Below are positions 71 to 42,329 of a stretch of DNA of 43,479 nucleotides, piece after piece. Position 1 is the first letter of the stretch. Each line of letters opens with the position of its first letter. The notes under the pieces are model-generated. The model was not told the origin of the DNA. It saw nothing but the letters and a program-made list of their open reading frames with translations, and did not search any database. This DNA is from Halocafeteria seosinensis (Eukaryota): positions 1-43,479 of the forward strand of contig LVLI01000512.1 in assembly GCA_001687465.1 (NCBI GenBank), read 5' to 3'. The translations under genes and the position numbers were made by a program.

Positions 71-3000
71 AAGGCAAGGAATGCATCCTGGATCTCAAGT
101 AAGGAGTGAGACCACCTCTACAGCTTAAAACAATCAGTTTTACGTTCTCTCCTGAGATTGGTCATGATTACAGCAAGAAATGGAAGGTGGAAGGACTTGT
201 GAACGATGAAGATTTTTGCTATTCTGTGGATGCCACAGCCGGAGCGGGAGCTAATGGACGCGTCTGTGCCGCTGATGCATCTGGGAGTGTCTGCGATACA
301 GTTCAGATCCAGTAAGATCTGAGTTGGACACGGCTTTAGTTTTGAAATGGTTTCCTCATTCTATCTACTTCGTAATCACAGAGCAACAGGAATGCTCAAA
401 GAGGATCCTCGTTTCGGCTTTATTCGCTACACTGATCCCATGGATGGCGAAAGTCAGTTTTGTTTCCTGATCCAATTTGATGCGTACAACGAGCCAACGG
501 GGAATGGAGGGTTTTCTTCTGGTTCAAGTATTAGCTGTATTGACGAAGATCCCCAACAATGGGCAGGAGTGATCGGTAGGTGATAAAATTCCCTTGACAT
601 GTTTGTGCGACTATTTTATATTACTTCGGGCAAGTACAGAAGGCAAAGAATGCATCCTGGATCTCAAGTAAGGAATCATGTGGTAGCTTGTATGATCTTA
701 GCTATTTCCATGTTATCGTGTTTTTTCGGTGTCTTCCAGTCGAAAGTGGAAAATCGAGGGAACCAAGAATGGTGAAGGCTTTTGCTATTCTGTGGATGCC
801 TCAGCTGGAACTGGGGGGCAGGGGCGTGTTTGTGCGGTTGATCCGTCCGGAAGCGTCTGTGATATGGTTGACCTCCAGTAAGGCTCTTGCTGAAGCAATT
901 TTGATTGGACCTACATCTGCTGTCAAGTTGTCAACCTGGTGGTCGTTAACTTACAGAGACACGGGAATGCTCAAAGCTGATCCTCGTTATGGGTTTATTC
1001 AGTATACTAGCCCCATGGACGATGGAAATCAAATTTGCTTAGTGATCGAATTTGATGCCCAGAATTATATGACTGGGAGCGGAGGGGTCGTTTCTGGCTC
1101 AAGTACTGGTTGCGTCGAACAGGACCCTCACGATTGGGCGAAAGTCATTGGTAAGTAGAGGGTCTTTCCCTCTTGTGTCAGCTGGTCCTTAGTGTCGCTA
1201 CTTGTGGAGCGTACACACTTGCAGAAGGAGAGGAATGTATTCTGGATCTGAGGTACGTCTTGGGGACCGATATACGTCGAAGGATATTGTTGCCCTGCAG
1301 CACTACTCGTGTTGTAGGACTACAGGAAGGAATGGAAATTGACAGGATTCTTCAGTGAGGAACAGAGATTTTGCCATTCTATCGATGCTTCGCGAGGCAC
1401 CAAAAACCAGGGAAGAGCATGTGGAGCAGATTTTACTGGATATGCCTGCACCAATGTAGAGGTTAAGTACGCTCATTGCCCATAACGCATAACCAAGGTA
1501 GGGCAAGCAATGAGTTATGCTTGTCTGTCGAGTTTGTCTCGCAGCTCCACCGGGCACCTGAGGGCTGATCCCCGCTTTGGCTTCATCGGTTATACAAGCC
1601 CTCTGGATAGTGATCGTCATATTTGCGCCCTGATACAATTCGACGCACACAACGAGCCAACTGGTAAAGGGAGGTTCTATTCTGCCCCGAAAGGAGACGT
1701 CATCTGTGCCAACTTGGATCCTGCGGAAGCGGCGAACGTTGTAGGTACGTGTCGCTGGCCAATGAAAATTTGGCATTTGTACTTCACACATAAGACTTTC
1801 GAATTTATCCGAGTTTTAACCATGCGGCGAGTGTGCAGAGGGAGGCGAGTGTGTTTTGTCCATAAAGTAAGGTGTCAGTGCCTAGAATATGCCACATTCA
1901 ACGCTACTATTTCCAACTCATCCCTACAGCAACATATGGAAGGTCGATGGCATATTAGCTGAAGACGACGAAGATTTCTGCCACTCCATAGATGCGAGAG
2001 GTGGCTCAGGTGCTGAAGGGCGAGCCTGCGCGGCCGATTCCTCAGGAAGTGTGTGCGAGTCTGTGCTCATCGAGTAGGTGCTGTCACCGACCTGCCGAGC
2101 TCCCTGTAATAGTTACTACTTGTGACTGTATTCTCTCACAGATCTACTGGCCCATTGAGAGTAAACCCCAATTTTGGATATATCCGATATAGGAGTCCAA
2201 TTGATTCTGCCCGCCGCATATGTTTGGTTATCGAGTTCAATGAGTCGAATGAACCCACAGGAGATGGAGGGTTCGTTTCGTCTACGAATGATGGTATCAG
2301 CTGCGTCGATCTTGATACGCAACGAGGTGCTTATGTAGTAGGTATGTTAGCAGAATACATGTATGGTAGAATGCCGATCTTTGACTGAATTCTCGTGATA
2401 CCAAATCCTTCGGTGCTACTTTGTATATGTCCATGCAGAAGGAGAAGAATGCATATTAGATATGAAGTACGTATACCTGCAGGGCCAGTTTTCGAGTCTC
2501 TACTTGTAGTTTCAGAGCAATTGCTTGAGTAATACAGTAAGAAGTGGAAAGTTGAGGGCACGTTCGGAAACGGTCAAGACATATGTCAATCGGTGGATGC
2601 CACTGGAGGAATCCACAGCGAGGGGAGAGTATGTGGTCTGGATTCGACGGGATATGCCTGCGACGTCGTAGAGATCGAGTAGGTCAATTCCTATTCATGT
2701 GCTTGGCACGACTTGTCTAGTAAACATTACGTGTGTATCGTAATATGCAGCTCAATGGGCCACTTGAGAGATGATCCCCGCTATGGCTATATCGGCTATA
2801 CTAGCCCGATGGACAGTAGTCGGCGAGCTTGCATTCTCATTCAGTTCGATAAATACAATGAACCAACCGGTTGGGGAAGCTTTTCTTCCAACGAGAAGGG
2901 TCAAATTAGTTGCAAAGACCTAGAGCCCTTGAACGGTGCGGAAGTAGTTGGTACGTACAGCGCACGTAGCATGAAGTGACGTCGACTGGGGAATTGTACT

Positions 3001-6000
3001 CTTCCAACACTTGAACATGCGTTGCAGAAGGGATCGAGTGTGGATCGGGCTTGAAGTAAGAAATTGGTGTGTTATGGATGGTGCAGTCTTCATTTTTTAT
3101 GCGTCTGTCATTTCTGTGTCCAGCAAAATTTGGAAGGTCGACGGTATATTCACCAGTAACGAAGATTTCTGTTACTCAATAGATGCCTCAGACGGCTTTG
3201 GCACCAATGGTCGAGCGTGCGCAGCCGATTCCTCCGGAAGCGCATGCGATTCCACACTGGTCGAGTACGTGTCCCTCTGGGCAGTTTTACAGAGCTCTTT
3301 TGGTAATTGCCACAACGGTTCTGTTCTGTAACAGATCCACCGGCCTCTTGATTGCGAATCCTCGATTTGGATACATTCACTTTACCAGTCCATTGGACTC
3401 CGCCCTTTCTGTTTGTTTGCTCATCGAGTTTGATAAGTTCAACCATCCTACAGGCGATGGAGGCATATTTTTGTCTATGAGTGATGATCTCAGCTGCGTT
3501 CTTCTAGAAACTCAACGAGGTGCATATGTCGTAGGTACGTTGTCTTACACCGTTGGAATGAAATTGAGGGTAGCTTATTTGGTTTACCACTTGGTGAGCC
3601 ATGCAGAAGGTGAAGAGTGTATGCTGGATTTGAGGTGCGTCATTTGGAGATCTTCAAGCATTATTAACGTGATAACATGGTACTCCTGCAGCAAGAAGTG
3701 GAGAGTTGAGGGGATTTTCCAAGATGGACAAAGCTTTTGCCGCTCTGTAGATGCCTCTGGGGGAATTCAAAGTGTGGGAAAAGTCTGTGGTGTGGACTCC
3801 ACAGGATCTACTTGTGGCAATGTGGTAATCGAGTACGCTTCTCAGTTATTGACATTTGTAAGCACTTTGTGGCTAGTAGGCAGTAAGCATGTATTTGTTG
3901 CAGTTCCATGGGTCACTTGAGAGATGATCCTCGATTTGGTTTTATCGGTTTTACTAGTCCCATGGATAGTGACCGTCGGGCGTGTATTTTAATCCAATTC
4001 GATAAATACAACCGACCAACCGGTTGGGGTAGCTTTTCGTCTGCAGCGAAGGGTGACATTTCCTGTAAAGACTTGGAACCTTCTGATGTTTCACAAGTGA
4101 GCGGTACGTGCTTCTGTGTTGCATGACTGTGTAGTCGACACTGCCGTCGTACTATGAGGGTATTCGTCTGCAAGGTTGTTCAGAAGGATTGGACTGCGTT
4201 CTACCATTGAAGTAAGGCTAGATTTATTATGGTCAAGCATGAAGGGATTTCTTTCACGATATAAAGTTTTGGTTGTTGTGGTTTCCAGCAAGAAGTGGAA
4301 GGTCGATGGAATATTGCTTGAGGATAACGAAGATTTTTGTCACTCCATCGATGCTACGGGTGGGGCAGGGACGCAGGGACGCGCCTGTGGTGCCGATTCT
4401 TCTGGTAGTGTTTGCGGGTTCGTAATGATCGAGTACGTAGCCGACGAGGAGTCTAGCTTTTGTCCCAAACCCATAGTCCGTTGCACCGTTGCCGTTTCTT
4501 CAACAGGTCCACGGGGGCTTTGACTGCAAATCCCCGTTTCGGGTACGTTCACTATCAGAGTCCAATGGAATCCGGCCGGCACATTTGTTTGATAATCGAG
4601 TTCGACCACCTGAACAAACCAACTGGAGATGGAGGAATATATCTGTCTCCTAATGAGGAACTCAGCTGCATGAATCTTGATCCGCAGCGCGGTGGATACA
4701 TAGTAGGTACGTTCCCCGTATTAGTTGACAAAGAATGTGGCAACAGCATCTTAAGTAATTTTATTTGTCAATGACAATTGGTGTGGAACGATGCAGAAGG
4801 TGAAGAGTGTAGATTGGATTTGAGGTACGCTTGAGGGAAATTTAGTTTCTTTGTATTTATAATCAATTTGGATGCGAATTATACAGCAAAAAATGGAAAG
4901 TAGAGGGCGTTTTCCAGAGTGGCCAAATTTTTTGTCATTCGGTGGATGCCTCCGCGGGAATCCACAATCAGGGAAAAGTCTGTGGCATGGACTCTAGGGG
5001 GTATGCTTGCAACCATGTAGAAATCGAGTACGTCTGTCTTAGTCGTCATATTGTTCGGACAAGCTGTTGATAGTGAACGACCGCAATTTGTGGTTTGGTT
5101 TTCGCAGTTCCATGGGCCACTTAAGAGCTGACCCTCGCTTCGGGTACATCGGCTATACTAGCCCCATGGGAAGTAACCGTCGTGCATGCATTTTAGTTCA
5201 ATTCGATAAATACAACCAACCAACTGGCAGGGGAAGTTTCTTTTCTAATGAGGAGGGGCAAATTGATTGTAGGGACTTGGAACCCTCGACCGGTGCAGAA
5301 GTAGTCGGTATGTAGTATGTCACTCAGAATAATATTGCTTCGTGGACAGCTCAGAGACTGATACATCTGTGTCTATTTGTTTGTATACTTACTCAGAAGG
5401 ATCGGACTGCGTTTTAGCATTAAGGTAAGGCTCGTCTATCATAATAAGATGTTTCATATCTACCAACCGAATATGTATATTCAGTAAAAAGTGGAAAGTC
5501 GACGGTATCCTAGTTGAGGGGAACGAAGACTTTTGTCACTCCATCGACGCTACTAGTGGATCAGGCAACGAGGGACGAGCATGCGCGGCGGATTCCTCAG
5601 GAAGTGTATGCAAAGTCGTCACGGTTGAGTAAGTTAAAGTGTAACAACTTCTCTTTCTTCACCCGTTACCAATGTTCTTTGACAGATCCACTGGAGCTTT
5701 GTTTGAAAACCCGCGTTTCGGTTACATTCACTATACGAGTCCCATGGATCCCGATCGCCGTATCTGTTTGCTTATCGAATTTGACCAACTCAACGAGCCC
5801 ACAGGAGATGGCGGCCTAGTAAGTTCGACGAGTGATGATCTCAACTGCGCCGAGCTCGGTGCACAGCGCGGTGCATACGTAGTAGGTACGTTCTTTTCAT
5901 TCATGGAGAATTCCAAGGGTTATATTCTGGTATTGACATTCTGATGTTTTGGACAGAGGGAGAGGAATGCATTTTAGACTTAAAGTAGGCTCCACCACGC

Positions 6001-9000
6001 GGAATTACCTTGAACAGACAGAACGTATTGCTTATGGACTCTGTATGCAGGAGAAAATGGAAAGTTGATGGAACATTTAGTGGGACCAGCGAAAACTTCT
6101 GTCATTCCGTGGATGCGTCGGGGGGTGAAGAAAGCGACGGAAGAGTTTGCGGCGTTGATTCCACCGGCAATGCCTGTGACACTGTGCAAATTGAGTACGT
6201 GCATTCAACCTCAGCGATATCAACGTCGCTTGTAACCGACACGACGTCTTTGTCGGACGTTACTAGTACACAGCTCCATGGGACATTTGAAGGCTGATCC
6301 TCGATTCGGATTTATCGCATATACTAGTCCATTCGCTAGTGATCGTCGGGCCTGTATGGTGATCAAGTTTGATCAATTCAATCAACCAACAGGAAGGGGT
6401 GGTTTCTATTCCTCTCCGAAAGGTGATTTTACTTGTGATGATGTCGATCCGGTCGAGGGAGCCGTTGCTGTCGGTAGGTTCCCTTTCCAAGCGCCAGTAT
6501 GCGTAGGGCAAGAGCATATTCTCCTTTGTTGAATGTGACTTTATTTTGCAGAAGGGACCGAATGCGTTTTAGATTTGAAGTAAGCCGAATTTTGTTGCCC
6601 GGGCTCTCCCTCGAGAGAGTGAATCGTTGCGTATTGCAGTAAGAAATGGAAAGTTGACGGCATATTGAGCGATACGGATGAGGACTTCTGCCACTCTATA
6701 GATGCATCGCGCGGCAGAGGGAACGAAGGTCGAGCGTGCACCGCTGATTCTTCAGGGAGCAAATGTAATAGTGTACAAATTGCGTAAGTCTTGAATGCGC
6801 TCACCAAAGACCAGGCGGAAAGTACTTGCCACAATATGCTATGCAACGTTCAGGTCTATGGGACTGCTTACCGCCAACCCTAGATTTGGATTCATTGGCT
6901 ACGCGAATCCAATGGAATCTTCACGTTTTGTCTGTCTGCTAATTGAATTTGATCAGTCAAATCAACCTACTGGAAATGGAGGTTTCTATTCCGCTGTCAG
7001 TGGCGATATAAGCTGCAGCGACCTACAGCCGCAACAAGGCGCCTATGTGGCAGGTACGTGGTTTGTTCTATGCATTATCAGGTTTCAAATTAACTAGAGC
7101 CACTTTCCGAAATGATCAATGATCCTGCAGAAGGTGAAGAATGCAGATTGGATTTGAGGTAAGGATTCGCTGAATGTGTTTCAGGAACCATGATTAGCAA
7201 ATACGGTAATGTGTGCAACATTTGGCAGCAAAATGTGGAAAGTTGATGGAGTTTTTAGTGAGAACAACGAAGACTTCTGTTATTCCATAGATGCCTCAGG
7301 CGGTAGCGATAGTGAAGGACGAGCCTGTGGTGCCGATTCGTCTGGAAGCGCATGTAGCACAGTGCAAATAGAGTACGTGTTTAGAAAAGCGGTCGAAGCT
7401 CAGTGACGGGACCTGTGATTGGTGTTTATGATGGGATCTACAGTTCCATGGGACATCTCAAGGCTGATCCTCGGTTTGGAGTCATCGGATTCACGAGCCC
7501 GATGGACAGTGATCGTCGAGCGTGTATTCTTATCAAATTTGATGTCCAGAATGATCCAACCGGCTCTGGCAGTTTCTACTCTGCCCCGAAGAACGAGGTC
7601 AATTGTACTGATTTGAGTCCGTGGGAAGGGGCGGTTGTTGTAGGTACGTAACGTGGGATCACTAACACCTTCGAAACTGCGATACTTGCTTTCGTTTGCT
7701 TCTTGACCCCTATACGCAGAAGGAAAAGAGTGCACTCTCGATCTATCGTAAGCATTCTGTTGGAGGGAATATTGCTACTGTAGCATGATCTACCTTGTGC
7801 CTCACTCCTGCAGCAAGAAGTGGAAGGTTGATGGAGTCCTACTCCGAGGAAACGAAGACTTCTGTCATTCCATAGACGCTTCCAGTGGTATGGGCCGAGC
7901 CTGCGCAGCTGATTCTTCGGGAAGTGCGTGTGACTCGGTCCAAATAGAGTAAGTTTAAAGTTACAGTCTCTTGAAATCACTTTTGAAAGATTGCACAAGT
8001 AAATACATTTCTCATTCACAGATCCATGGGACTTCTGAAGGCAAATCCTCGTTTCGGATACATTGGCTACTCGAATCCGTTGAAGCCTAACCGTCGCATT
8101 TGTTTGTTAATCGAGTTTGACAAATTCAATGAGCCCACAGGAGACGGCGGATTCTACTCTACTATCAGTGGCGATGTCAATTGTTCGGATCAAAACCCGC
8201 AGCGCGGAGCGTATGTAGTAGGTAAGTCTTCAGATTTTATGCATTGCTACCAACGGTACATGTCATAGACCTCGTTATGGTCTGCCGAGTTGCAGAAGAT
8301 AAAGAATGTATCTTAGACTTAGAGTAAGTTCCCGCCTTCGATGTTCTCTAACCTAGGGGTCATTGCGGGCATGCAGTTGGGTAACGTTCTCTCTTCGACT
8401 ACCTCTGGGGACTGCAGAAAGAAATGGAAAGTAGTTGGGGTTTCCATTGGAACTGATGAGAAATTTTGTCATTCTGTGGATGCTTCCGGGGGACTCCAGA
8501 ACCAGGGCAGAGTTTGTGGCTCAGATTCTTCGGGAAACAATTGCGACACGGTCGAAATTGAGTAAGTTTGTGCAGCATATGTCCCGCAGAGTGATGATAA
8601 CCAATAATTCTTACACATAACAAGCAGTTCCTTAGACCACTTGAAGGCTGATCCTCGGTTTGGAGTTATTGGTTACACTAGCGCAATGGATAGTTCTCGC
8701 CAGGCGTGTCTTCTTATCCAGTTCGATAAATACAACGAACCCACTGGGTGGGGCAATTTCTATTCGGCTCCCAAAGATGAGATAAATTGCATGGAGTTGG
8801 GACCCTCCGCAACCTCTGTCGTAGTGGGTACGTGCTAACCCAGGCTCTCATTTCACTTGTGACACATTCAAACTCTGTGGAATTTTGCAGAAGGAGCTAG
8901 TTGTGCCTTAAATTTGACGTAAGACGTACTAATTGCTATAGTTTCTATGCACGGACGTGCGCCTCACAATGACTTTCTGGCATGTTGCAGGAAGAAGTGG

Positions 9001-12000
9001 AAAGTTGATGGTGTTTTAGTTGAGAATAATGAAGACTTTTGTCACTCAATAGATGCTTCCGGTGGTGTGGGAAGCCAAGGTCGAGCATGTGCGGCTGACG
9101 CGTCAGGTAGCTCTTGCGATTCTATACAAATCCAGTAAGCTTGCAAACTAAGTTAGTTACGGTTCGTAACGGTAGTAACCCATTTACCCTCCCTCTTGTG
9201 CAGATCCGTTGGAGCGTTGAAAGCTAACCCTCGTTTTGGATATATCGGTTACAGGAGTCCGTTAGATCCCAACCGTGACGTCTGTCTCCTGATTGAGTTC
9301 GACGACGCGAACGAACCTACGGGAAATGGAGGATTTTATTCTGATGTGAGTGGGGAGTGGAGTTGTGACGAACGATTTCCGCACACAGGGGCCTGGGTCG
9401 TGGGTAAGTGGGTTCGGCAATGAACGTTTGGGGAGCGGTTTCTTATGGACTGTTATTCTGGGTTGATTATTACAGAAGGAGAGGAGTGTATTCTGGATTT
9501 GAGGTAGGGCATAAGATGTTCATATGTACACATTCATGCTAATGCGACTCATTGGAAAAACTGATGAGAGACATACAGAAAGCTATGGAAAGTTGATGGT
9601 GTTCTCAGCGACAGCAACGAAAACTTCTGTTACTCTGTTGACGCTTCGAGTGGACCCGGAAACGATGGAAGAGCCTGCAGCACCGATTCTACGGGGAGTA
9701 CTTGTGATTCTGTGCGAGTACAGTACGTCTCTTAGATGGGAATACATTTTTATGTTGTTCAATTCCTAATCAAGCTGCGCATCACAGTTCTTTGGGACAC
9801 TTGAGAGCCGATCCAAGATTTGGATTTGTGGATTACACGAGTCCTCAAGATAGTAACTTGCGTGTTTGTCTTCTAATCCAGTTCGATAGGTACAACGAGC
9901 CAACGGGAGGCGGGGGATTCTCCTCTGCTTCAAGCAGCGACATCAGTTGTGAGGATGTTATACCGCGACTTGGAGCAACTGTCACAGGTATGTAAAGACA
10001 CTATATATTGGTGCTTCTGACATAGGTTTATGAGAATATTATTACCCTATGCAGTTGGCCGCGAATGTATCCTACTGTAAGTTCTGCAAACCAAGGTGAC
10101 ACCATATGGCGTTCAGTTCTCACGTCGCGGTATTATGCAGGCGGAAATGGAAGGTAGATGGTACCCTTAGAGACGACGATGATGAACAATTTTGCCATTC
10201 TATAGACGCGTCTGTTGGAGTAAACAGACAGGCACGTGCATGTGGTGCCGACTCTTCCGGAAGTGGCTGCGGCACGACATCCATTCAGTAAGAAGCCCCT
10301 GGGTGATGCCACAGCTCTGTATCCCGACTAATCTACTTCTGTTCTGTACCATCAGCTCTATGGGTCTGTCAGATATTGATCCTAGTTTCGGGTTTGTTGG
10401 ATATACCAGTCCAATGAATAGTAGTCACCAGATCTGTGTTCTGATAGAGTTTGACGAACGTGGAAGACCCACGGGGAATGGAGGATTCTATTCTGCTCCG
10501 GGTAGCGAACTCTCGTGCGCAAATCTGGATCCACAAACGGGGGCTACTGTCGTAGGTATGTTAACCCACAGTGTAAGCGACCATAGGCGATGTCACCCGT
10601 TCACTTTTTTGTGTGCAGACGGCGAAGAGTGTATCTTAGATTTAGCGTAAGAACTTGAAACCATAGGCTGCTTTACCACTTCAATGTGTCAAATGTCGTC
10701 CTTGTATCTGCTGTGATCTTCAGAAAGAGTTGGAAAATTGACGGAAGTTTCGAGGAGGATGGCGAGAGGTTCTGTCACTCCGCTGATGCTTCCGGTGGTG
10801 CAGGAGAGACTGGAAGGCTGTGTGTGGCTGATTCAAGTGGAAGTTTTTGTGACTTTGCCCAAATCCAGTAAGGATATTAGCAACCGCAGTAACCTTAAGG
10901 ACCGGGGTAATCCGTGCTTTAATTGTTCTTGATGCAGTGCAATGGGGCATGTGAGAGCTAATCCTCGTTTCGGATATGTCGGCTACACCAGCCCACGAGA
11001 AACTAGTGAACGAATTTGTTTGATTATCGAGTTTGACCAGTACAACACCCCAACCGGCCAAGGGGGATTCTATTCTATATCCGACGACGTCGTTGAGTGC
11101 GCTGAAGTGGAACCTAAAAAAGAATCAGTAGTAGTCGGTACGTCTCAGAGTGGCTCTATTTCTGTAAGCGAGAGCTTCGGATCGTCTTTATTGTTTATTT
11201 GTGGAAGTACAGAAGGCGAAGAATGTATACTAGAGCTCAGGTAGGATCCCGTTTTTCTCATATCGAGATATTTGGTGCAACGCTTATTGATTGTCTAAGA
11301 ATTTGAAATCCAGACGAACGTGGCAAGTGGAAGGCACTTCCAGCGACTCCAATGAGAATATTTGCTATTCAGTTGATGCATGGAGCAATTCGGATTCGGA
11401 AGTCAGAGTCTGCGGCGCCGATGCATCGGGAACTGTTTGTGGTACATTTCCAATCCGGTAAGGCGTCCGAAGCGTTGTCACTATACTGATGGGGGAATCT
11501 GACGATATCTGGGACTGCAGTTATATGGATCATTCGAAGATCAACCCACGGTTTGGAGTGGTTGGATTTGACAGCCCGATCGACAGTAGAAGGCGGGTAT
11601 GTATGTATGTGGAGTTCGATGCCCGTAACCGCCCAACAGGCAGGGGAGGGTTTTACTTGGGTCCGATTAGTTGCGCTAGTGCACCACCTCTAGATGGAAG
11701 TGTGATAACGGGTAAGTGGCTATCTTCACAGCCGAATTTATCTATTTAGCTTCCAGCTATTTGTTTCTCCTCACATACGCTCTGCAGAAGGGAACGAATG
11801 CTTGTTACGGTGCGTGCAACGTCATTTCGTGCCACAGCAGTAAGAGTATTCACCTTCATTCATTATGCTGCAGACGAAAATGGAAGCTAAGTGGCGAGCT
11901 GAGTGGTAATAATCAGAGAATCTGCTACTCTGTGGATGCATCTAAAGGAGTTGGCGCCGAAGGAACCGTATGTGGAGTGGACGGTTCCGGCACCACATGT

Positions 12001-15000
12001 GGGATGGCAAAGATTCAGTAAGAACTAGCAAGGTCTGTAAAATTCACCGGTTCAAATGCGCTTCTATTCGATTGTTATGCCATGCAGTTCCATTGGACAT
12101 TTGAATTCGAACCACCGGTTTGGTTACATTGGATTTTTTAATGCAAAGGACATTAACCAACTGATTTGCATGCTGATTGAGCTCGACGCCGAAAATAATC
12201 CTACAGGATATGGAGGCTTGCGCTTTGGGGCGAGTAGCGACATTTCATGTGAGGATTCGGCAGCAAATGCTGGATCTTTGGTAGCACGTATGTATTACTT
12301 CTTGAAAGAACTTGGTGATCAGCTCCGCTAATGCATTCTTTCATTAACTTGGTTCATGCAGAAGGTGAGGAATGCACCATTGACTTGGAGTAAGTATTGA
12401 TTTTAGTTAGAAAGTCGAAAACGTTGGTCAACTGATCCGTTAATGGCGCCATATTGTGGTCACAGAAAGAAGTGGAAAGTAGACGGCGTTCTTATGAGTA
12501 ACAACGAGAGATTCTGCTACTCGGTTGACGCATCTGCGGGCGTTGGTACAGAGGGACGTGTATGCAACGCCGACTCCAGCGGTTCTACTTGCGGGAAGGC
12601 TCAAGTAATGTAAGACAAGCAGTCGATACATGAATATGGTCATTTGTGACCTACCCTCGATGCCTCATGATGTCGACATACAGTTCGATGGGACATTCAA
12701 GTGTAGATCCGCGGTTCGGTTACGTTGGGTTCAGCAGTCCCATCGAAGAACAGCGGACTATTTGTATATTTATCCGCTTCGATTTACAAAATAAACCGAC
12801 CGGTAGTGGAGGTATGATCACGGGAGCGAAGAGTGACGTTTCCTGCAAAGGTGAAGAGCCAAACGAGGGAGCTGTAGTAACAGGTAGGCAGATACGGAAA
12901 TAAAATACCATCATATAGTGAAACGACAATTTGTTACTTCTTTATGCTGTGCAGAAGGGGAAGAATGTGTTTTGGACTTATCGTAAGCAGTTGAATAGTT
13001 TCGAAGCCTGCCCAACGCTTGAGTCATAATTTCGCCGGTGACCATCATACAGGAGGAAGTGGAAGCTTAACGGCGTTTTGGATGGCAGCGAAAATATATG
13101 CTACTCTGTGGATGCAACGAAAGGCCTGGGATCAAACGGTCGGGTATGTAGCGTGGACTCCAGTGGCAGCAGTTGTGAGATGGCGCAAATAACGTAAGCA
13201 TCTTAGATGCTGAAGCTCGGTATGCTAGAACATTCTTCCTCGAAGAAATATAAATGCAGTTCTATGGGCCATGTAAATGTTGACCCCCGCTATGGTTTCG
13301 TGGAATTCCCAAGCCCCAAAGATAGTAGGCAAACTGTCTGCCTACTTATCCAGTTTGACACGAACAATGACCCAACAGGTTACGGAACTTTGTACATCAA
13401 GGCAACCGGTGGAGGCGCATGTGCAAGCGTTCAACCGAATGAGGGCGCGACAGTAACAGGTACGTGCCAAGATAGAGGAATATTCCTCCGCTTCTCGGCA
13501 CAGTTTTGGTCACTTCATCCTCTCTGGTATCCAGAAAATGAGGAGTGTACATTGAGTCTCGCGTAAGTTAATGTATATCCCTGGAGTGATTAATCCTGGC
13601 AAACCACTCTGGATATATGCCGATACAGCAAGAAATGGAAAGTGAAGGGCATGTTGGCTGGCTCAGGTGAGAAATTCTGCTATTCTGTGGACGCCTCCGA
13701 GGGGATCAACGCGAGAGGACGAGTTTGTGAACGGGACTCTCGTGGTGAAGCATGTGGGATGGCAAATATCTTGTAAGTGTAGGAGATAACCGATCCTGTG
13801 GTCTCTGTGTCGGCATCACGATCTGGTGACATCTTACATTGCAGTTCCATGGGGCCTTTGAAGGCGAATCCTCTCTTTGGCTTTATAGGCTTTGGAAGTC
13901 CCACAAGAAGCGGTGTGACCAACTGCATAGTGATTAAATTCGATTATGCCAATAATCCAGCAGGCGCTGGAGCCCTCTGGTATGGCCCCAGTGGTGACAC
14001 ACGCTGTGCCGAAGCTGAACCAAACGATGGAGGGGTCGTTACAGGTGCGTGCAATGAAGTTTTTGAGCTGATAGAGTGAGCTCAATTATTTGTTATTGTC
14101 TGCTGGTCAGAAAATGAAGAGTGTATTCTGAATCTAGCGTAAGTCCTTACTCCGTTGAACGACGTTTTGTCTTACAGCTGCTTATCCAGTCTATGGTGAC
14201 ACAGGAAAAAATGGAAGGTTGGAGGAGCCCTGGGTGACTCTGGCGAGGAATTCTGTTATTCCGTTGACGCTTCCGGAGGAGCGGACGCTGAAGGAAGGGT
14301 ATGCCGTGTTGACTCGAATGGAAAAACATGCGAGACGACAGCCATCAGGTAAGGGGACAGATCGAGCATGCTCGGGTTGGCCGCCTTACACACTCTCGTA
14401 CCTTCTACGGTATCACAGTTCCATGGGATATCTGCATGTTGATCCTCATTTTGGCTTCGTCCGCTTCGCAAGTCCGCTTGACAGTGACAAAACCAATTGT
14501 ATACTTGTCGAGTTTGGAGATGAAAACAATCCAACAGGGAGGGGAGGTGTGATATTTGGTGCCAGCAGCGATCTGTCATGTGCGGACGCTAATCCGCTCA
14601 CCGGCGGAGTTGTTACGGGTGCGTGTAGAGGGTAGCACATCGAACGAGTATTAAAAATACATTCACTGGGATTCCTGACATGCGTCCCTGCAGAAAACGA
14701 GGAGTGCATTTTGACCCTAGCGTGAGTGCGCGCGTTTCCATTACACAGGTAACCTCAGGAGTCAGCTCTGTTTGAACTAGTACGCAGGAAGAAGTGGAAA
14801 GTTAGTGGAGCGATGAGCAATTCTAACGAGAGGTTTTGCTATTCCGTCGATGCGTCAGAAGGAACAGAAAGTGAAGGAAGAGTGTGCCGCGTGGACTCTA
14901 CCGGCCAAACATGCGGGATGGCAGAGATTAAGTAAGAGAACTTGTCACACATTCATAGTGTACGCTTTGGCCTAAGCTGCTCCTAACGTACGCGCTGCAG

Positions 15001-16367
15001 CTCCATGGGACCTTTGAAGACTGATCCGAGCTTCGGTTTTATCGGCTTCGCCAGTCCGATAGATAATGACCGGATGAATTGTATGCTAATCCAATTTGAC
15101 AGTGAAAATAACCCAACAGGTGCAGGTGGATGGTACTTTGGATCAAGCAACGTCGTAAACTGCGAAGATGCTGATCCGATAGATGGTGCTGTGGTAGCTG
15201 GTATGTAACCCTGGCAAAGACTCTTCTAATTTAGCCATGCTCAGTTTCCCATGTGCTCTTCACTTCCAGAAAACGAAGAATGCGTGCTCGAGCTGGAGTA
15301 AGTCAAGAGAGGACTGTTGTGTAGGTGATGCTCGTTACATTTTCTTTGGCTGTCGTTTACAGAAAGAAATGGAAGGTTGTAGGAGGCGACGTTGACGAAA
15401 GATTCTGCTACTCTGTGGATGCTACCGCGAGAAACGGTTCTCTAGGCAGAGTCTGTAACATGGACACTAAGAATCATACGTGCACAATGAAAGAGATCCG
15501 GTAAGAGCAAAATATCTGAATTCCATAAGAGGATCCTGTCGTTTCTTTTACGTAAGCTAGTGACTTGCAGCTCCATGGGTCACCTGAAGACTGATCCTCG
15601 ATTTGGATACGTTGGATTTAGTAGTCCGATGGAGAATGACCAAACAATTTGTATACTTGTCCAATTTAACGCTGTAAACGAACCTACAGGAAGAGGTGGT
15701 ATCTACTTTGGACCGAGTAGCACCGTTGTATGTGCCGATGCCGACCCAATAGACGGAGCTGTTGTACAAAGTATGAAAGAACCTGACAGTACACTGTATG
15801 TCTGTGCTATTGCGTACTACGTTATCGACTGTTTGTTTCTCTCTGTTTTCACAGTAAATCATGAGTGCGTTCCGGATCTTCAGTAAGTAAACGGTGCCGC
15901 TGTTCAACAGGTCATCGGTATATAATTGTATCCACCCATTGTTTTGAGCAGGAGGAAATGGAAAATGGAGGGAACATTCGGCACCGGTAGTGAAGCCTTC
16001 TGCTACTCCATGGATGCTTCGAGTGCTGCCTCGGGGGAAGGACGTGTTTGTGGCCCAGATCCGAGCTGTAATTCATGCGAAACTGTCAGAATCTTGTATG
16101 TACTTACTATCGCAAGAGTAGTGCCTTGCGTTTATCAAAGGGTACTAGCGCATTGATGATACAGCGATTCTGGCCGTCTTCGAGCTGATTTTGATTTCGG
16201 ATATTTGGCATTTGCTGATCCGCAAAATAGGTCTCAGACAAAGTGCATGCTAATTCAATTGGACGGGCAAGATGAACCAACTGGAGACGGAGGCCTTCTC
16301 ACAGTCAACAGCGGGAGCGCCAGCTGTGCCGACGCAGATCCATCGTATGGTGCAGTGGTTACAACAG
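71..16367 (+). repeat. Tandem array of 28 ~585-bp three-exon units (coding parts conserved, introns diverged)
   Basis: Micro-exon A (..cag AAGGnGAnGAnTGy..|gt) recurs at ~71, 641, 1225, 1839, 2439, 3028, 3607, 4183, 4797, 5397, 5957, 6552, 7131, 7719, 8296, 8891, 9476, 10055, 10619, 11212, 11788, 12362, 12954, 13535, 14111, 14693, 15270, 15855, each followed by a TGGAA(A/G) exon B and a PRFG/PTG exon C. Confidence 0.92.
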
Positions 16368-16732
16368 GTGCGCAAATCTACGATATCTTGGTTAATAATG
16401 ATGTTTATATCCGTTCTGTTCTGGTTCCTGCAGCACAAGAAGACGGCGGCGACGAGGGACCCGATGGGGGAGATGAATCCTCGCGCGGCGGCGGTGACTC
16501 GTCAGGGGGAGCGGCTGCTGGAGGGGTGGCTGCCGTTGTTGTAGCTGTCGTAGGTGCAGCATTGTATAAGTATCGGGACCGTTTGGGAATAGGTGGAGGT
16601 GCGAGCGGCGCACAACCACCTAGGCTGGGTGGCGAGCACGGTTTATCAGCCGAGAATCCGCTTTACGCCAGTGGTGCGCATTCAGACACTGGAGAATCAC
16701 CCGGTACCAAGAACGGCAGTGAAGAGGCTTAA
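71..16732 (+). CDS. Giant multi-exon type I membrane protein (5' end outside window): 28 tandem ~123-aa six-Cys domains, acidic/Gly stalk, TM helix, cytoplasmic NPxY tail; >=85 exons, ~3500 aa in window
   Basis: Manual splicing at GT-AG gives recurring exon triplet: A (e.g. 71-98, EGKECILDL), B (174-311, KKWKVEG..FCYSVDA..GRVC..DASGSVC..VQI), C (382-575, G.L..DPRFG..SP.D..ICLLIQFD..NEPTG.GGF..ISC....GA.VVG) with phases 1/2/2 in every unit checked and no in-frame stop; last intron 16368-16433, terminal exon to TAA 16730-16732 encodes GGAAAGGVAAVVVAVVGAALYKYR (TM, ~16511-16567) and ENPLY (16652-16666). 1-70 is intron tail, so gene continues upstream. Confidence 0.88.
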
Positions 16733-17472: not shown

Positions 17473-20098
17473 ATGCGTGTGGAAGAGGTTCTGGAGACTG
17501 CCGCGGGGAGCGAGGTCGCAGATTCCACTCTGCACCAAAGTGTTCATGCTCTCTTACGGGAGCACAGAGTGGACTCTGTCGACCATCTCACGTGTCAGTG
17601 TGAGAATCAGCACAGCCCGAATGGCGGGGTACGTCACTTACAACCAACATGACTAACGCTCCGCATGAAGTCGAAATCCTGCCCCCCCCCCCCTGGAAGT
17701 TCAGATGCACGAAATCTCCATACTGCATGGCGCCGTCTTGCGTGGTGTGAAAGGTCTAGTGAGGATGCTCATAAAGGAATTCAATGCCGATCCGAACCTC
17801 AAGACACGATGCATCGTAAGTGCAGAAAGTGGTTTGGAGTTCCCCTCTCACCTGCATCTGGAATTGGAAGCTGTGTCTTGTTTGCAGAGCAAGAAGACTC
17901 CAATACTCATTGCCTGTCAAGAAGGTGACTTGGAGATGGTGAAATTACTAGTTCAGGAGTGCAGTGCTGATCCCACTGTAACAGGCATGGTACGTGTCCT
18001 TGCCGCTAGTGACTGCTGTGGGCTGGAGCTGACGTCCGCCATGTGCACAGCTGGGGAGAACTCCATTGAATATTGCATGTGAGTATGGACATAGCGGTAT
18101 TGTTCGCATGCTAATCAATGAGTTTGGTATCAACCCTAATTCCCAAGATCGAGTACGTTTTCCTTGAGGTTACAACACATTTGGCCAGTTCAGTGAACAT
18201 CCCACTACTACACTACCGGTATTTTCACACAGGCTGGGAGAGCACCCCTACACGTGACTTCCGTATGCGGAAATATCGAGTTGGCCCGTCTCCTCATAGG
18301 AGAGTGCGGTGCTGACGTGGATGCCTTAACCGCAGATATGGTAGGGTAAAACTACCTCCACCTTCTACGGTTACGTTGACATCTTTCACTGAATTGTTCA
18401 GACCCCGAAAACACCGCTATACATAGCTTGCGAACACGGCCACCTGGATGTCGTACGGCTACTCTTGAATGAGTTTCATGCTGATCCGAACGTCAGAGAA
18501 GGAAATGTACGCTACTTAATGCGTGTGACTACACTGATATCAGTGGGATGCTCTTTGTATGCGGGCTCGCTGCAGACCTCCATGACTCCGCTGCAAATTG
18601 CTTGCAAGACGAAGAACTGGGAGCCTGCTAGAGTACTGGCCGAAGAATCCAATGCAGATCCGAACCTTAGTTGCAAGGTACGTGTTGACTACCTCAAGTG
18701 GGACATGCGTCTAGCTGAATTGCGTCGATCTGCAGCACCTGGAGACTCCACTACAGCTTGCTTGTGTCAGTGGTGAAGTAGCGACAGCTCGAGCACTGCT
18801 CAGACATGCAGAAGCTGATCCGAATATCAAAGACTTGGTAGGTCTCAAGAGATTAACCATAGGTAGTACAACGCGTGCGGCACTTCAATGGAAAGCACAG
18901 GCGCTAGGAGAAACACCACTTCACTCCGTTGCTTCGTGCCCCACGGAATTGCTTGACACCGCTCGTTTGCTGCTTGAAGAGTTCAGTGCGAACCCAGATT
19001 CCAGGGACCAAGGAGTAAGTTTTATATTCTCGAGGTTACAGGTATGAGTGTCGTTTCATGGTTAGGATTGCCCTGTGTTAATACCGTACACACAGGCGAA
19101 CAGGACACCGTTGCACTTAGCTTGCTACAACGGACATACCAATATTGTCCGCATGCTAGTAAAGCAATTCGACGCTGACCCTCATGTAATAGAACGACCG
19201 TTTGCGTTCATGGTGTGTTATCAACCGTGGACCTCCATGGTAGCAACTCCCGAAAAACCCATACTGAACGTTTCTGGTCTGTCGTACAGTCAGGAAAGAC
19301 TCCACTATTGATAGCTGCTGAAGAGGGACACGAAGATATCATTCGAATTTTAGTAGAAGAATGTGGTGCCGATCCATCCGGTCGGGCTTTAACCGAAGGC
19401 TCCTCAAATACAGCACTGCAAGTAAGTGGCGTCTGGGCAGCATACTTCGTTAACTCTTCATCATCTACTGATATCCATATGAGCAGGTAAGCGGAACTCC
19501 ACTCTATTGCGCTTGTGCAAGAGGGCATGTCCGCATAGTCCGACTCCTGTTGCAAGAGTATGGGGTCGACGCCAATCCTGCGCAAGAAGTCAGCCAGCAG
19601 TATTGTTTGATGCCCTCTTAATGCATGGAACCAGACTTGAACCGGTCATTACAGGACGAGGAGTCCCCCCTTCATGCTGCTTCCAGAGCGGGCCATCTTG
19701 AAGTAGTTCGGCTCTTACTTGCAGACGGCAAAGCAGACCCGAACCCTAAAGATCTCGTATGTGAATGCAAGAGCGTTTCCCCCGTAGTATCATAACCATA
19801 CAGAAAAATGGTGAATCTTCTAATTTTCGTGCAGGGTAAAATGACCCCTCTCCACTTCGCATGTTCTTACGGGCATGTTGAAATTGTCCGATTGCTGCTG
19901 GCTCAAGACCAGATGGATCCTTACTTCCAAGACAATGTATGCTGAGCAAGTACTAATTTCGTTGTAGTGATTGAATTGGAATTTACGCTTTTGTTATGTG
20001 TGCTCCAGGCCGGCCGAACTGCTTTGGCCTGCGCCAAAATGCATGAGGGAGTTTCTCGAGTACTGAGGGAAGAATTCGGACTCTCCGAACCCCTTTAG
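17473..20098 (+). CDS. Ankyrin-repeat protein, ~15 exons, 13 full repeats plus a degenerate capping repeat
   Basis: Phase-0 exons starting ~17705, 17888, 18051, 18233, 18402, 18576, 18736, 18901, 19096, 19290, 19487, 19655, 19835, 20009 each translate to one ankyrin repeat (e.g. GRTPLNIACEYGHSGIVRMLINEFGINPNSQD, TPLYIACEHGHLDVVRLLLNEFHADPN, GKMTPLHFACSYGHVEIVRLLL); stop TAG 20096-20098. Start (ATG 17473, exon to ~17628) is tentative. Confidence 0.85.
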
Positions 20099-21091
20099 CT
20101 AGATGCGTGATGGTGGCATAAGGTTGAACGGCTCGGAATCCAGAGAGAGTACTTGGATAACGGTGCCAGCTGGAGAGCCTAAGGACTACTTCTGAATAAT
20201 TGCTAACAATCAAGCATGAGGTTCGGGATGGAGAAATCTGCATTTGAAGCGCCATGATATACAACTACCAATCGCAGTTCGTTTTTGGCAGAAACATGAT
20301 AATTCTAATTGCCCCCGCACACTCAGTGCGAGTTATCTTTGAAGGGTTAAACTTAATGAAACCGGGGGCTGCAGGCATGGGAGGCTAAGATGTCTTGTCT
20401 TCCTGGGAATTCAGCAGATCAGTCAATCACGCTGAATATAAGAAACTCCCTCATCGGTTACTGTATACGATTGGCCGGGATAGCGTAGAGAACGACTTCG
20501 ATGAAACGAGTGGATGTAGTGGGTACAGACTAGACGGCATATTATACTCGCAGCAGAGGACGTAGAATACTCGCTTCATCTTGTGCGAGTTTAAGTTCTC
20601 TGAGATGAGAAGCAGTCTCTTTGCAGTTCTCGCTTCATTCGTGGCATTGCTAGCATCCTGCTTTTCTTACTCATGCAATTGAATATAGCGATCCATATAA
20701 AAAGTACAATTCATGACTCGTTGTGTATACGTCAGAGTCTTGTCGTCATCTTTCTCTTTTCCCAAGGCCATCTTGTCTTTATATCCTCAATCCCACAGGC
20801 CCGAGATCCTGAATTCACTCGCCCTCATTCGGGAATACACGATTACGAAGCTCTTCTACTTTCTTCTAGGTGAGATTTGGTGCTGTGTCTGCAATAAAGC
20901 CAATTGTACTGGGCCATTGCTGGTCATGGTCGTTACCGCGTTTGCTTGTTGGACTGCAAGTGCCTGTGTACTCCATGTTCCACAGCAGTCACACGGCTTT
21001 CCATCACAATTGTTTCCGGATGGTTATGAGAAACGTATATATGAATGTCCTCCGAGTCGCGCAGATGGGTGCGGACACAGCATTCTGAGGC

Positions 21092-23692
21092 ATGGTCACA
21101 AACGGAGTTGTACCCACGTTTTCCAGCCAGGTTGGATTCCTCGCCAGAAGATCGCAGGTGCGACTTGTTGGTTCACTTTGCGACGCTCAAGAAAACCACA
21201 CTATTAACCCAGTGTTAGGTTGGTTGTTAATGCCGTACAGTAGATGCCCCCCGGGGAATACAAGCACAAGAGAAATGGAACGGAAAACGCAGCGCCCGCT
21301 TCCGGAAGAGCAGGAGCAAGACCACCGTTCCGTCCCGGGACAAACGACTCCGGCTGTTGATGGTTCCTCGCCTCAAACAATTCGACGTAAGCCGCAAACA
21401 ATGTGGTTCAATTGTTATGGATTCACACCATGGAGGTACGTCTGTCCATGGTGGGAGCGGTCGGAATCGAGTGAAAACACCAAAAAACACAACGGTGGAA
21501 GTCAGCAACGACATCGACGACGGTGTTTGCTGGTGTGGGGAGCCATTTTGGCTTACCTGTTATACTGGATCGGGCTAACGCTGGAGTTGAGACCATGGAT
21601 GTATACGCATCGACGACTGGGGTACACCATGGATGAATTGGTGCACTGGGTGGGATTATACAAACCTTCGCAATCGGTGCAGAATTCACCGGATCCCTGG
21701 ATGATCACCGGCAACGTATCCCAAGTCCAGGAAGAGGATGTTGTTAAAAGTCGGACGTTTGTTGAGTTGTTGAATACGCGGATTGCCATGCGACGGGATG
21801 CGCTGGAAAAGCAAGTGAAGGACTCTCTTGATCAGCAACGAGCAATAGGCTCCTCTGCTTCCACAGGGACCAAGAAACGAGCCAAAGTAGTAGTGTTCGG
21901 CGCAAACGAGTTTATTGGGTATCACATTATTGAGAAACTAGCTCAGCTAAACAAGAGCGCTTCGAGCCAATATAAAGGGGGAATCGAAATTGTGGCATTC
22001 GCGTCAGCGACGCCTGAGTACACCAGGGAGACACCTATGAAGAACTATCGAGACTCACTTTTGTGGCAGAAACATCGAATTCGAACTCAAAAAATCCATA
22101 CGTGTAAAGTGGAAGTATATAAAAGTCTTTTATTCGGAAACGTTGAATCGGGTGGCCAAAAGGGCAATCCTCCGGAAATTGAAGGAGTTACGCATATTGT
22201 GCAGGCCGCTCTCACAGCTGAAAATACTGGTACCTTGAGTACCTGTCAGCTTACTTTCTTAAACGCCTTTGCAGAAACTGCAGAAGCCGTTTCGCCGCAA
22301 TCTACCCTAGCATCGTATATTAAAAATGTCCCGGTTATCCTGGACTTGTCACTGGATCCTCAGGGAACAGACTATAAGATGAAAAAGTTCCTGGCGAAGA
22401 TGAAGGCATCTTGGAGGCTGGCCGATTTATATAAGGAAACATATGGACTCAACTTCTTTCTGATTAATCCAGGACTGGTTATATTCGGGCAAGTAGATAG
22501 TTCAAATTCCCTGCTACGGCGTTTGTCACGGCTTGCATCTCTTGATAACCCTGCGAGTAGCGGCGATGACCCTCGCCCGATGAAGCAAGGTAGCGCTTTC
22601 AAGCAGGTTCTGGAAGTCACGTATGGTATAAGCCTTGTTCCTGTCAGTAAACTGGCAGAATCGTTAGCCAAGTGCATGCTGGGTCCTGGAAACGTAGGGC
22701 TGGCCGGAACTTTGGCATCATTCGGCAATGCCGACTCGAATGATAAGCTGATAAAAACGCTGAATACCAAGAATTTAGGGATGACGCTACTAGGCTTACT
22801 CACAAACCATCAACGGGTACGTACGTCTACTACTGGTAAAGTAGACACAATGCTAAGACAGCAGTCCTCCCTTGGCGACGAATTTACTGCTCACCTCTCG
22901 GACTACGTTCGCTGGTTTTTGGAGCATACATATCCCGAAGGAATCATCATAACCTCATATTTTGCCATGACACCGCGGGCAAGGGGCCGGTCCAGACTTT
23001 CAGCATCCGGGGACGAGCAGTATATTGCTTCCTTGCGTAGCGCGGCCCACAAATTTAATCTAAAAGTATACGTATGGCACAACGGTTTGCTTCCAAAGTT
23101 TGTGCTCGATCAACAGACGGAAAGGTTTCAATTCCTACATACAGACTACATGGCTGATAGCGTACACAAGAAAACGGCGAAATATATCCCCATTTCACCG
23201 ACGGATCTCCGCTTCGTGTATTATCTCCGGCACATTGAGAGAATCAACTCCTCAATCCCGGCCGACTATCGCCCAACGTATGCGCTATTAACCGATATCG
23301 ATGACGTTCGTTTTCGAAAAGACCCATGGAAGTCAATTCGAAGCGGCAACGCTGACAGCTTGTTCATTGGTACCCAAAACAGAGATGCTTCGACCAATGA
23401 ATGGTTGCAACACAACATGAAGATTTGTGAGCTCACCGACGAGGATCGGGGAACGGCCAACTACGGGCACTTTCGCAAGCAGCATACGGCGACTTTGGAT
23501 GCTGGAATTATTGGTGGGAGACTTGGAACTATAAGCGGCTTTCTTAATCGACTACTGCACACGTTAGAGCGGTTCAATCCCTACGTGAGTTGTAATATGC
23601 CCGCTGTTAACCTTGTTGCCAAGCGATACTACCCAACCCGTCTATTTTACGCCAATGCCACTGCGAAGAAGGACATATACATTGTCCACTAG
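21092..23692 (+). CDS. Intronless type II membrane protein: degenerate NAD-dependent (UDP-glucuronate 4-epimerase-like) extended-SDR domain fused to a C-terminal DxD glycosyltransferase-like domain
   Basis: 866-aa open frame (true start may be ATG 21275); hydrophobic CLLVWGAILAYLLYWIGLTL anchor; Rossmann-like KVVVFGANEFIGYHI; LADLYKETYGLNFF resembling extended-SDR helix; C-terminal IIITSYF, YALLTDIDDVRFRKDPW, LDAGIIGG, CNMPAVN motifs. Confidence 0.7.
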   Translation: MVTNGVVPTFSSQVGFLARRSQVRLVGSLCDAQENHTINPVLGWLLMPYSRCPPGNTSTREMERKTQRPLPEEQEQDHRSVPGQTTPAVDGSSPQTIRRKPQTMWFNCYGFTPWRYVCPWWERSESSENTKKHNGGSQQRHRRRCLLVWGAILAYLLYWIGLTLELRPWMYTHRRLGYTMDELVHWVGLYKPSQSVQNSPDPWMITGNVSQVQEEDVVKSRTFVELLNTRIAMRRDALEKQVKDSLDQQRAIGSSASTGTKKRAKVVVFGANEFIGYHIIEKLAQLNKSASSQYKGGIEIVAFASATPEYTRETPMKNYRDSLLWQKHRIRTQKIHTCKVEVYKSLLFGNVESGGQKGNPPEIEGVTHIVQAALTAENTGTLSTCQLTFLNAFAETAEAVSPQSTLASYIKNVPVILDLSLDPQGTDYKMKKFLAKMKASWRLADLYKETYGLNFFLINPGLVIFGQVDSSNSLLRRLSRLASLDNPASSGDDPRPMKQGSAFKQVLEVTYGISLVPVSKLAESLAKCMLGPGNVGLAGTLASFGNADSNDKLIKTLNTKNLGMTLLGLLTNHQRVRTSTTGKVDTMLRQQSSLGDEFTAHLSDYVRWFLEHTYPEGIIITSYFAMTPRARGRSRLSASGDEQYIASLRSAAHKFNLKVYVWHNGLLPKFVLDQQTERFQFLHTDYMADSVHKKTAKYIPISPTDLRFVYYLRHIERINSSIPADYRPTYALLTDIDDVRFRKDPWKSIRSGNADSLFIGTQNRDASTNEWLQHNMKICELTDEDRGTANYGHFRKQHTATLDAGIIGGRLGTISGFLNRLLHTLERFNPYVSCNMPAVNLVAKRYYPTRLFYANATAKKDIYIVH

Positions 23693-37486: not shown

Positions 37487-38488
37487 TTAACCTTGTTTCT
37501 CTGCTCTAAGAGATTTATCCTTGATTTCATTGTCACCTATATCAATCCCCGTCAATGTCGTATTGACCCGCAAGGCATCCGCCAAATGTTGCGCTCCTGT
37601 ATCACCGATCTGATTTAGTTCTAAATCAATCCTCGTCAATGTCGTACTGACCCGCAAGGCATCCGCCAAATGTTGCGCTCCTGTATCACCGATCTGATTC
37701 CCTGCTAAATTAATCCCCGTCAATGTCGTATTGACCCGCAAGGCATCCGCCAAATGTTGTGCTCCTGTATCACCGATTTGAGTCGCTCCTAAATGAATCC
37801 ACGTCAATGTCGTATTGACCCGCAAGGCATCCGCCAAATGTTGCGCTCCTGTATCACCGATCTGATTCCCTGCTAAATTAATCACAGTCAATGTCGTATT
37901 GACCCGCAAGGCATCCGCCAAATGTTGAGCTCCTGTAGCACCAATTTGATTCCCTCCTAAATTAATCCACGTCAATGTCGTATTGACCCGCAGGGCATCC
38001 GCCAAATGTTGAGCTCCGATTTGATTCCCTGCTAAACCAATCCCGGTCAATGTCGTGTTGACCCGCAAGGCATCCGCCAAATGTTGAGCTCCTGTAGCAC
38101 CGATTTGATTCACTCCTAAATGAATCGTAGTCAATGTCGTATTGAACCGCAAGGCATCCGCCAAATGTTGAGCTCCTGTATCACCGATTTGATTTCCCCA
38201 TAAACGAATCTCAGTCAATGTCGTATTGACCCGCAACGCATCCGCCAAATGTTGAGCTCCTTTAGCACCAATTTCATTCCAAGCTAAATTAATCTGAGTC
38301 AGTGACGTATTCTTTCCCTCCCGCAAGGCATCTGCGATTTCTTTTGCATCTCTGTCATCCAAGCTCTTGCACAAAAGATCCATTCCTGTATCCGTATACT
38401 CTGGATCATTTCGTCGAATCCGTTGAATACTCGTCTGCACTCTTTCTTCCTGCTTGGCGTCCCTCCTCTTGCTGTTGTTGGATCCCAT
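37487..38488 (-). CDS. Intronless RI/NLRC3-type leucine-rich-repeat protein, 10 modules, N-myristoylation-type start MGSNNS; C-cap frameshifted
   Basis: 333-aa ORF of 28-aa repeats NTTLTxIxLxxNQIG(D/A)TGAQHLADALRV (84-bp period; module 4 has a 9-bp deletion); 23-nt deletion relative to paralog near 37508 gives early stop RAEKQG*. Confidence 0.88.
   Translation of the reverse strand: MGSNNSKRRDAKQEERVQTSIQRIRRNDPEYTDTGMDLLCKSLDDRDAKEIADALREGKNTSLTQINLAWNEIGAKGAQHLADALRVNTTLTEIRLWGNQIGDTGAQHLADALRFNTTLTTIHLGVNQIGATGAQHLADALRVNTTLTGIGLAGNQIGAQHLADALRVNTTLTWINLGGNQIGATGAQHLADALRVNTTLTVINLAGNQIGDTGAQHLADALRVNTTLTWIHLGATQIGDTGAQHLADALRVNTTLTGINLAGNQIGDTGAQHLADALRVSTTLTRIDLELNQIGDTGAQHLADALRVNTTLTGIDIGDNEIKDKSLRAEKQG
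37508..38330 (-). repeat. 84-bp coding tandem repeat (LRR modules), copy 1
   Basis: Near-invariant gtcaatgtcgtattgacccgcaaggcatccgccaaatgttg(c/a)gctcctgta repeated ~10 times with variable ~19-nt segment. Confidence 0.92.
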
Positions 38489-39404
38489 TCTTATTCTTCT
38501 TCTTATTTAGATAGGAAGGGTAGGGTAGGCAGCATACAATGCAGTACAATACACTATTATACTTCGTTGTGCAGTATAGTATAGTACAACCATTGTGCCA
38601 TACCCTGGTGGTAGTGTATGGATGGTGTGTGTTATGCTGCGTGGCTTTATTTACCTCAGATAAACAAGCAAGCAAGCAAGCAACAACCCCTATGTATGAT
38701 ACATACTATACATACAACAAGGCAGACTGTCGTCTGGTGAAGCAAATAAATGTCACACGATTCGTGTCATGTAGCCTCTGCATAATGTAGGTGGGTGCAC
38801 CGTGCGGGTGTGAAGTTCACTGTGAACCATTGCTGCTTCAACCTACACTGGTTAGCTAATAACCCATGTATGTCCGTTGAAGAAGAATCATCATCAATCC
38901 TGTTCAGCAGCAGCAGCAGCAGCAGCCATGGTCATGGTCATGGTCATCGTGTGTTGTGGGAGGCACATTGCGACACGGGGACGATAGGATCGGAATGTGG
39001 GGTTCCATCCATCCAATCCAATCGCCGCCACAGGGGCGCATCATTCTCATTGAAATTTCAGATTTTGTTTACTTGCTTGCTCTTTGTTATCTTCATGGCG
39101 TTAGTGCTCTTCCATTCATATCTTGCGATCTCAACTAAACTCATAAACTCAACAGCTCTTTCCCGTCCTTGTTTTGGGTGCTGCTGCTACTGTAGGCTGC
39201 AGTGGAATCATCCACGAACCCAAGCCGCACATTGCGATCAGAAAGCAGCACCAAAGTGTTGCTGCTGGAGCTTACTTCCGCAGACTGAGTTAGAAGAATG
39301 ATTTCTGCCTCCTCCAAGCAGTTGTCTCTAAAAGACAAAACCATGGCGGTCGACCACCTCGTAGTACTGGTTTCTGACTTGTACTCTGGATGCTGGCTTG
39401 GTGA

Positions 39405-41770: not shown

Positions 41771-42329
41771 TGCTTTCGCTGTTTCTAGCTTTTTATCCCT
41801 TTCTCATCCCAATTGAGTAGACATATGGACAGTTAAGAGGTGCGAATAGGCAATGATGAGGGCAAACAACGCCGACTTACAAAGTAGCAACCTGCTGTTG
41901 AATTCGAGCAAGCAGTCTATCCAGGTCTGCTGTGGCGTTGCTCATCGTGCCTGGGCGTGTCTTTACGCACAACCAATGTAGCACTCTCCCTTAAGTACAT
42001 TATAGTTTTTCATATCGTTTACCACAGTCACTGTCACTTCTCCTGCCAGACGACTGCCAAGTCAAGACTTCCTACCAAAAGTGACGGCATCCAGAGGGGA
42101 CAATGCTTTCGTTCACTTGGAGAAATGGAGTTGAATTCTATTCATTCAATGCAATGAATGAGGTCGATTAGTATCTGGCATTGATCGTGCGTGGGTTATA
42201 GAGAAGCACGTTCTTCTGTTTCGCTCTCTTTGGTAGATTCTGTGTGTTGTATAGTGTATACTGTACAACAGGTTGAGGTTGATACAGTAGATAAAGTTTA
42301 TTACCACCGTTCACCGTTTGTAGGAGACG

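Follow-up and report, generated by a model that had tools for sequence, protein, structure and literature searches.

Halocafeteria seosinensis contig LVLI01000512.1 (assembly GCA_001687465.1) was analyzed over positions 1 to 43,479 of its forward strand, a 43,479-nucleotide (nt) stretch referred to here as the window. At its left end lies a gene composed of 28 three-exon units and a last exon (window 71-16732, + strand). An earlier note, made from the letters of the stretch alone, had described this gene as a giant surface receptor built from at least 28 copies of an unrecognized six-cysteine domain.

Organization of the array

To build the gene model, a script combined motif anchors with candidate splice sites. 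The motif filter passed over exon C of unit 21, which was positioned directly from the sequence and then verified. All 84 introns are of the GT..CAG type and measure 57-97 nt (median, 71 nt). Exon A is 28 nt long (22 nt in units 18 and 21), exon B 135-147 nt, and exon C 191-203 nt, and their phases are 1-2, 2-2, and 2-1, respectively. The joined coding sequence of 10,643 nt translates into 3,546 amino acids (aa), and its sole stop codon is the terminal one, which bears out the earlier description of at least 28 copies that are in frame and stop-free after splicing. The window opens inside an intron, and the start codon and signal peptide lie upstream of it; hence, 28 units is a minimum.

The units are 119-124 aa long and share 36-75% pairwise identity (mean, 50%). 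Fifteen alignment columns are invariant, and six of them are cysteines, fixed in 28/28 units as the earlier note had stated. The distribution that it gave for exons A, B, and C (1/3/2) holds in 27 of the 28 units and fails in unit 28 (1/4/2). One residue of its consensus has to be replaced: the final G of GA.VVG came from reading through a donor site, and the spliced codon encodes the first E of EGEEC. On the + strand of the array, 28 occurrences of the exon-B motif were counted, compared with none on the rest of that strand or on the whole - strand of the window, which argues that the array is not due to chance. The features of the gene are listed in Table 1. Seven of the 84 introns are in frame and stop-free, and six of these, the last intron included, follow an exon C. 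Two of the seven, with lengths of 72 and 57 nt, are consecutive introns at window 3336-3830 (+).

Table 1. Features of the repeat gene in window coordinates
Feature	Position	Strand	Basis or remark
Array of 28 three-exon units	71..16367	+	Period about 570-610 nt; 83 GT..CAG introns within
First exon A in the window	71..98	+	Its cysteine would close an upstream 29th domain beyond the window
Example exon B (unit 1)	174..311	+	W..G..FC.S.DA..GR.C..D..G..C; three cysteines; four-stranded antiparallel sheet predicted
Example exon C (unit 1)	382..575	+	G.L..DPRFG....P.....C.I.FD..N.PTG.G......C; two cysteines; four-stranded antiparallel sheet predicted
Units 3-16, two alternating subtypes	1225..9403	+	Lag identity, tree, four diagnostic columns
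Last domain, exons B28 and C28	15952..16367	+	Extra exon-B cysteine, no exon A after it; six cysteines in the B-C-next A register
84th intron, after the array	16368-16433	+	GT..CAG
Last exon	16434..16732	+	Scripted gene model
Gly/Asp/Ser-rich juxtamembrane linker	16434..16507	+	
Predicted single transmembrane helix	16508..16564	+	Kyte-Doolittle; Gly/Ala/Val-rich, with GxxxG
Predicted 55-aa cytoplasmic tail and stop codon	16565..16732	+	One NPxY motif (NPLY at 16655-16666)

Relatives and domain boundaries

A search of the exon-C profile against 1.84 billion representative proteins yielded seven matches, of which two, P0001 (E 2.2e-10) and P0007 (E 9.9e-4), are credible. The remaining five were dropped as sums of weak repeats. 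P0007 is a 64-aa ENA fragment. P0001 is a 183-aa EukProt protein, annotated as a complete open reading frame (ORF), with transcript accession gb/GECG01009441.1, whose prefix we take to be that of a bicosoecid stramenopile transcriptome. P0001 has a hydrophobic N-terminus, a single domain, and a hydrophobic C-terminus; its start can be read as signal-peptide-like and its end as resembling a glycosylphosphatidylinositol signal. Neither protein has a matching Pfam family. The domain of P0001 is the same as that of the window gene, with the six cysteines kept, and is present in one copy there versus at least 28 here.

The cysteines of P0001 follow the order exon B, exon C, and next exon A, at spacings of 10/9/33/26/16, compared with 16 (13 once)/9/33/24-27/17 in the window domains (27/27 measured). 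P0001 and the window domains also have in common an Asp at position 4 after the first cysteine. The 33-residue spacing straddles the B/C splice junction, and its exact recurrence in P0001 means that the splice model is backed by an independent transcript. When the array is divided in the B-C-next A register, each of the 28 domains, the last one included, contains exactly six cysteines. The structural domain most likely comprises exon B, exon C, and the cysteine of the next exon A, not A-B-C. The A-B-C unit of the earlier note is correct as the repeat period and out of register with this likely domain.

No Pfam family reached its cut-off with the repeat exons, and none of the 28 exon-C peptides matched any Pfam family at E <= 1; the exons were scanned one by one, which lowered sensitivity. 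One exon-B peptide matched FOLN at E 0.11. The Pfam models of EGF, Ig, FN3, cadherin, SRCR, and lectin were not matched by the exons, and P0001 gave nothing relevant. NCBIfam and PHROGs returned single matches only (E 0.02-0.1). In the PDB, the exon-C profile had a single match (E 0.32) and the exon-B profile had no match, and an alignment led by P0001 retrieved no PDB chain at E <= 10. These searches do not place the repeat in any of the six families that the earlier note had set aside, and the check that it had set, a hidden Markov model search for a characterized family, reached no curated cut-off. No published description of the repeat module was found in the portions of the literature covered. 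The module looks uncatalogued in the libraries searched, and the all-beta extracellular domain is probably undescribed.

Two AlphaFold2 models were obtained. In model 1, the predicted local distance difference test (pLDDT) score of the C half was 93-95; in model 2, it was 85-92 for the C half and 65-81 for the B half, with four strands in each half.

Predicted membrane anchor and tail

The highest 19-residue Kyte-Doolittle value, 2.2, lies at aa 3473-3491, whereas the repeats reach 1.23 at most. With the 3,546-aa frame and the AlphaFold2 strands, this predicted helix agrees with the earlier view of a giant, membrane-anchored, beta-rich protein. The last exon, and hence the tail, has no Pfam match. 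According to passages of two reports, NPXY motifs of integrins and Dictyostelium SibA bind talin and PTB domains, and such motifs are also present in the Acanthamoeba adhesion lectin MBP (PMC9197732, PMC12686525). The single NPxY of the window protein, a short motif, suggests anchoring or uptake.

The window protein has features of the SibA/integrin-beta type: a Gly-rich single transmembrane helix with GxxxG and one NPLY. Type I topology, a Gly-rich single helix, and a short NPxY tail are common to it and to both the SibA/integrin-beta-like receptors and the Acanthamoeba mannose-binding protein. However, the window protein has one NPxY motif where these proteins have two, and its ectodomain consists of one unrelated repeat. 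Neither vWA nor SibA domains were found by Pfam in the 3,546 aa, the protein N-terminus lying beyond the window.

Integrity and duplication history

Contigs of run X1, which is possibly the window's own source, cover the array at >=99% identity in seven pieces with 0 joints or frameshifts and gaps of 1, 1, and 43 bases. A collapsed-repeat artefact is therefore unlikely. Inside the gene, X1 and the window differ at 16 positions (10 intronic, 3 silent, and 3 missense). One X1 contig reaches about 1.9 kb upstream of the window start.

The proportion of synonymous differences exceeded that of nonsynonymous differences in 378/378 unit pairs (means, 0.81 and 0.34), and intron alignments between units were about as poor as those of shuffles. 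Together, these results argue that the frame, splice sites, and cysteines have been preserved over a long time. Within units 3-17, identity is 64% at lag 2 versus 51% at lag 1, and this alternation points to growth of the array through duplication of two units at a time. In the unit tree, just 2 of 25 inner branches have strong support.

The X1 contig of unit 1 (window 79-674) has a depth of 175, whereas most of the array lies at 113-119. Another X1 contig, 33 nt long and with a depth of 55, is placed at 645-674. Contig depth is a hint, and an extra copy of unit 1 may be present on one haplotype.

Neighboring genes

The neighborhood is ordinary for a protist, with ankyrin, leucine-rich repeat (LRR), cadherin, and SibA-like genes. 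A multi-exon ankyrin-repeat gene lies immediately downstream of the array (window 17669-19490, +). It is followed by an open frame of 867 codons (21089-23692, +) that includes a hydrophobic segment and lacks a Pfam match at E 0.01; three start variants of this frame are absent from the protein collection. In a single long ORF (32687-35398, +), SibA-type N-terminal and Ig-like domains (PF24907, PF24908) are combined with a stalk rich in Ser/Thr, and a hydrophobic segment lies close to its end. Farther on, a cadherin-domain ORF (PF00028, E 2e-13; 39405-40358, +) is situated between two opposite-strand LRR genes, a closely related pair of LRR_6 ORFs with 84-nt tandem repeats (37487-38506 and 40769-41803, -). 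Decayed LRR-like fragments are located near 24652 and 30963.

Discussion

The gene probably encodes a single-pass type I cell-surface protein for adhesion or capture, in which independently folded, disulfide-bonded beta domains of 123 aa arose through frame-preserving three-exon duplications and an NPxY tail makes the tie inside the cell. The grounds observed are the gene structure, the frame, the cysteine pattern, the constraint on coding sites, and the single-domain relative. The strands and membrane helix are predicted, and we infer the disulfides, packing, shape, ligand, expression, and tail partners; the rod-like ectodomain and the receptor role put forward in the earlier note are putative. 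The ectodomain would be a chain of at least 28 uncatalogued all-beta modules, each with three putative disulfides. A single domain would begin at the end of an exon A, span exons B and C, and close with the cysteine of the exon A that follows; its two four-stranded antiparallel sheets would pack into a small sandwich or barrel. The array would grow as entire three-exon cassettes duplicate in tandem, and because the cassette phases sum to zero, the frame would be kept. The resulting fiber, with an estimated extended length of roughly 100 nm, would stand out from the cell and may bind substrate, prey, or matrix multivalently. Through its short tail, the protein may be linked to PTB/FERM adaptors that serve anchoring or uptake, instead of signaling through an enzyme domain.

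Several results weigh against this reading. The B-C-next A register was adopted because of the cysteine spacing in one relative, P0001, and an A-B-C register with other cysteine pairing is the alternative. The N-terminal half of P0001 did not match exon B alone significantly (hhalign probability, 0.5%), and the whole-unit profile scored 53-54 bits on P0001 versus 56 bits for exon C alone, with no gain. The predicted template modeling scores of the two AlphaFold2 models were 0.62 and 0.45; neither model represents a whole, correctly spliced domain, so that the packing of the halves proposed here is putative.

A pseudogene, a set of separate short genes, or an assembly artefact is very improbable. 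The gene is known here from genomic sequence alone, and its 5' end lies beyond the window; however, the 84 repeat exons contain no stop or frameshift, the spacers are all intron-sized, and the strong synonymous excess and the matching X1 contigs stand against a pseudogene or an artefact. It is just as hard to credit a common origin of exon B and the linker segment of Wnt proteins that contains cysteines. Pfam Wnt (PF00110) matched five of the 28 exon-B peptides weakly at E <= 1 (best, 6.4e-4), and two exon-B peptides searched singly matched only Wnt chains in the PDB (8/8 and 5/5 matches; best E, 0.0016 and 0.0022). However, the PF00110 cut-off was missed (19.1 bits for the first member versus 20.3), and the best match covers about 37 of 305 positions, the similarity being confined to about 35 residues around the GTQGR.C loop. 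The profile of all 28 exon-B sequences found no Wnt in the PDB at E <= 10, P0001 has no Wnt match and differs in its first cysteine spacing, and there is no Wnt chain among the fold matches listed. Wnt proteins are recognized by a full-length helical N-terminal domain and a complete cysteine set, whereas the unit has 123 aa, six cysteines, and a nearly all-beta prediction. Since the Wnt signal is lost with the family profile and absent in P0001, it is read as convergence of a Gly/Cys loop.

Two structural alternatives concern the fold. The unit might consist of two beta-propeller blades, with two to four successive units forming disulfide-closed propellers, so that the chain would be made up of lectin-like heads and not of 123-aa beads. 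This is unlikely. P0001, with a single unit, would need oligomerization to form a propeller; the B and C halves are not detectably homologous (hhalign, 0.5%; observed score reached by 2 of 40 column shuffles); any four-stranded meander would match blades; and the atlas recognition value of 1591, obtained with a query that contained intron-derived residues, lies below the 2300 mark. Less likely again, the domain could be a remote member of a small up-and-down beta family, such as a PliI-type sandwich or a calycin/avidin-like barrel, making the protein an array for enzyme inhibition or small-ligand binding. The match to the PliI lysozyme inhibitor (PDB 3od9) involves a half-domain only, at background level and without a sequence signal, and no profile similarity to PliI or calycin types was found with the P0001-led alignment against the PDB or with Pfam.

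The adhesion or capture protein proposed here belongs, in overall architecture, to a well-known class of giant protist surface proteins. Such proteins include cadherin, Ig, EGF, and sushi arrays and the Cys-rich surface antigens of Paramecium and Giardia, and they likewise have long, periodic, Cys-rich ectodomains that arose via tandem duplication. In contrast to the cadherin, Ig, EGF, and sushi arrays, the window repeat matches none of the corresponding Pfam models, and each copy is divided among three exons whose phases are fixed. The repeat could possibly, though we hold this only tentatively, be the founder of a new extracellular family that has a fold of its own, an eight-stranded beta domain with three disulfides that occurs alone on small anchored proteins and as arrays of at least 29 on a giant NPxY-tailed adhesion fiber of a protist lineage.

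Protist surface proteins are poorly catalogued. With two credible relatives among 1.84 billion proteins and no curated family, the repeat is a concrete new domain for structure determination, and the single copy in P0001 shows where an expression construct could naturally start and end. Should the NPxY tail prove functional, the protein would be another combination of an ectodomain with an integrin-like tail outside animals.
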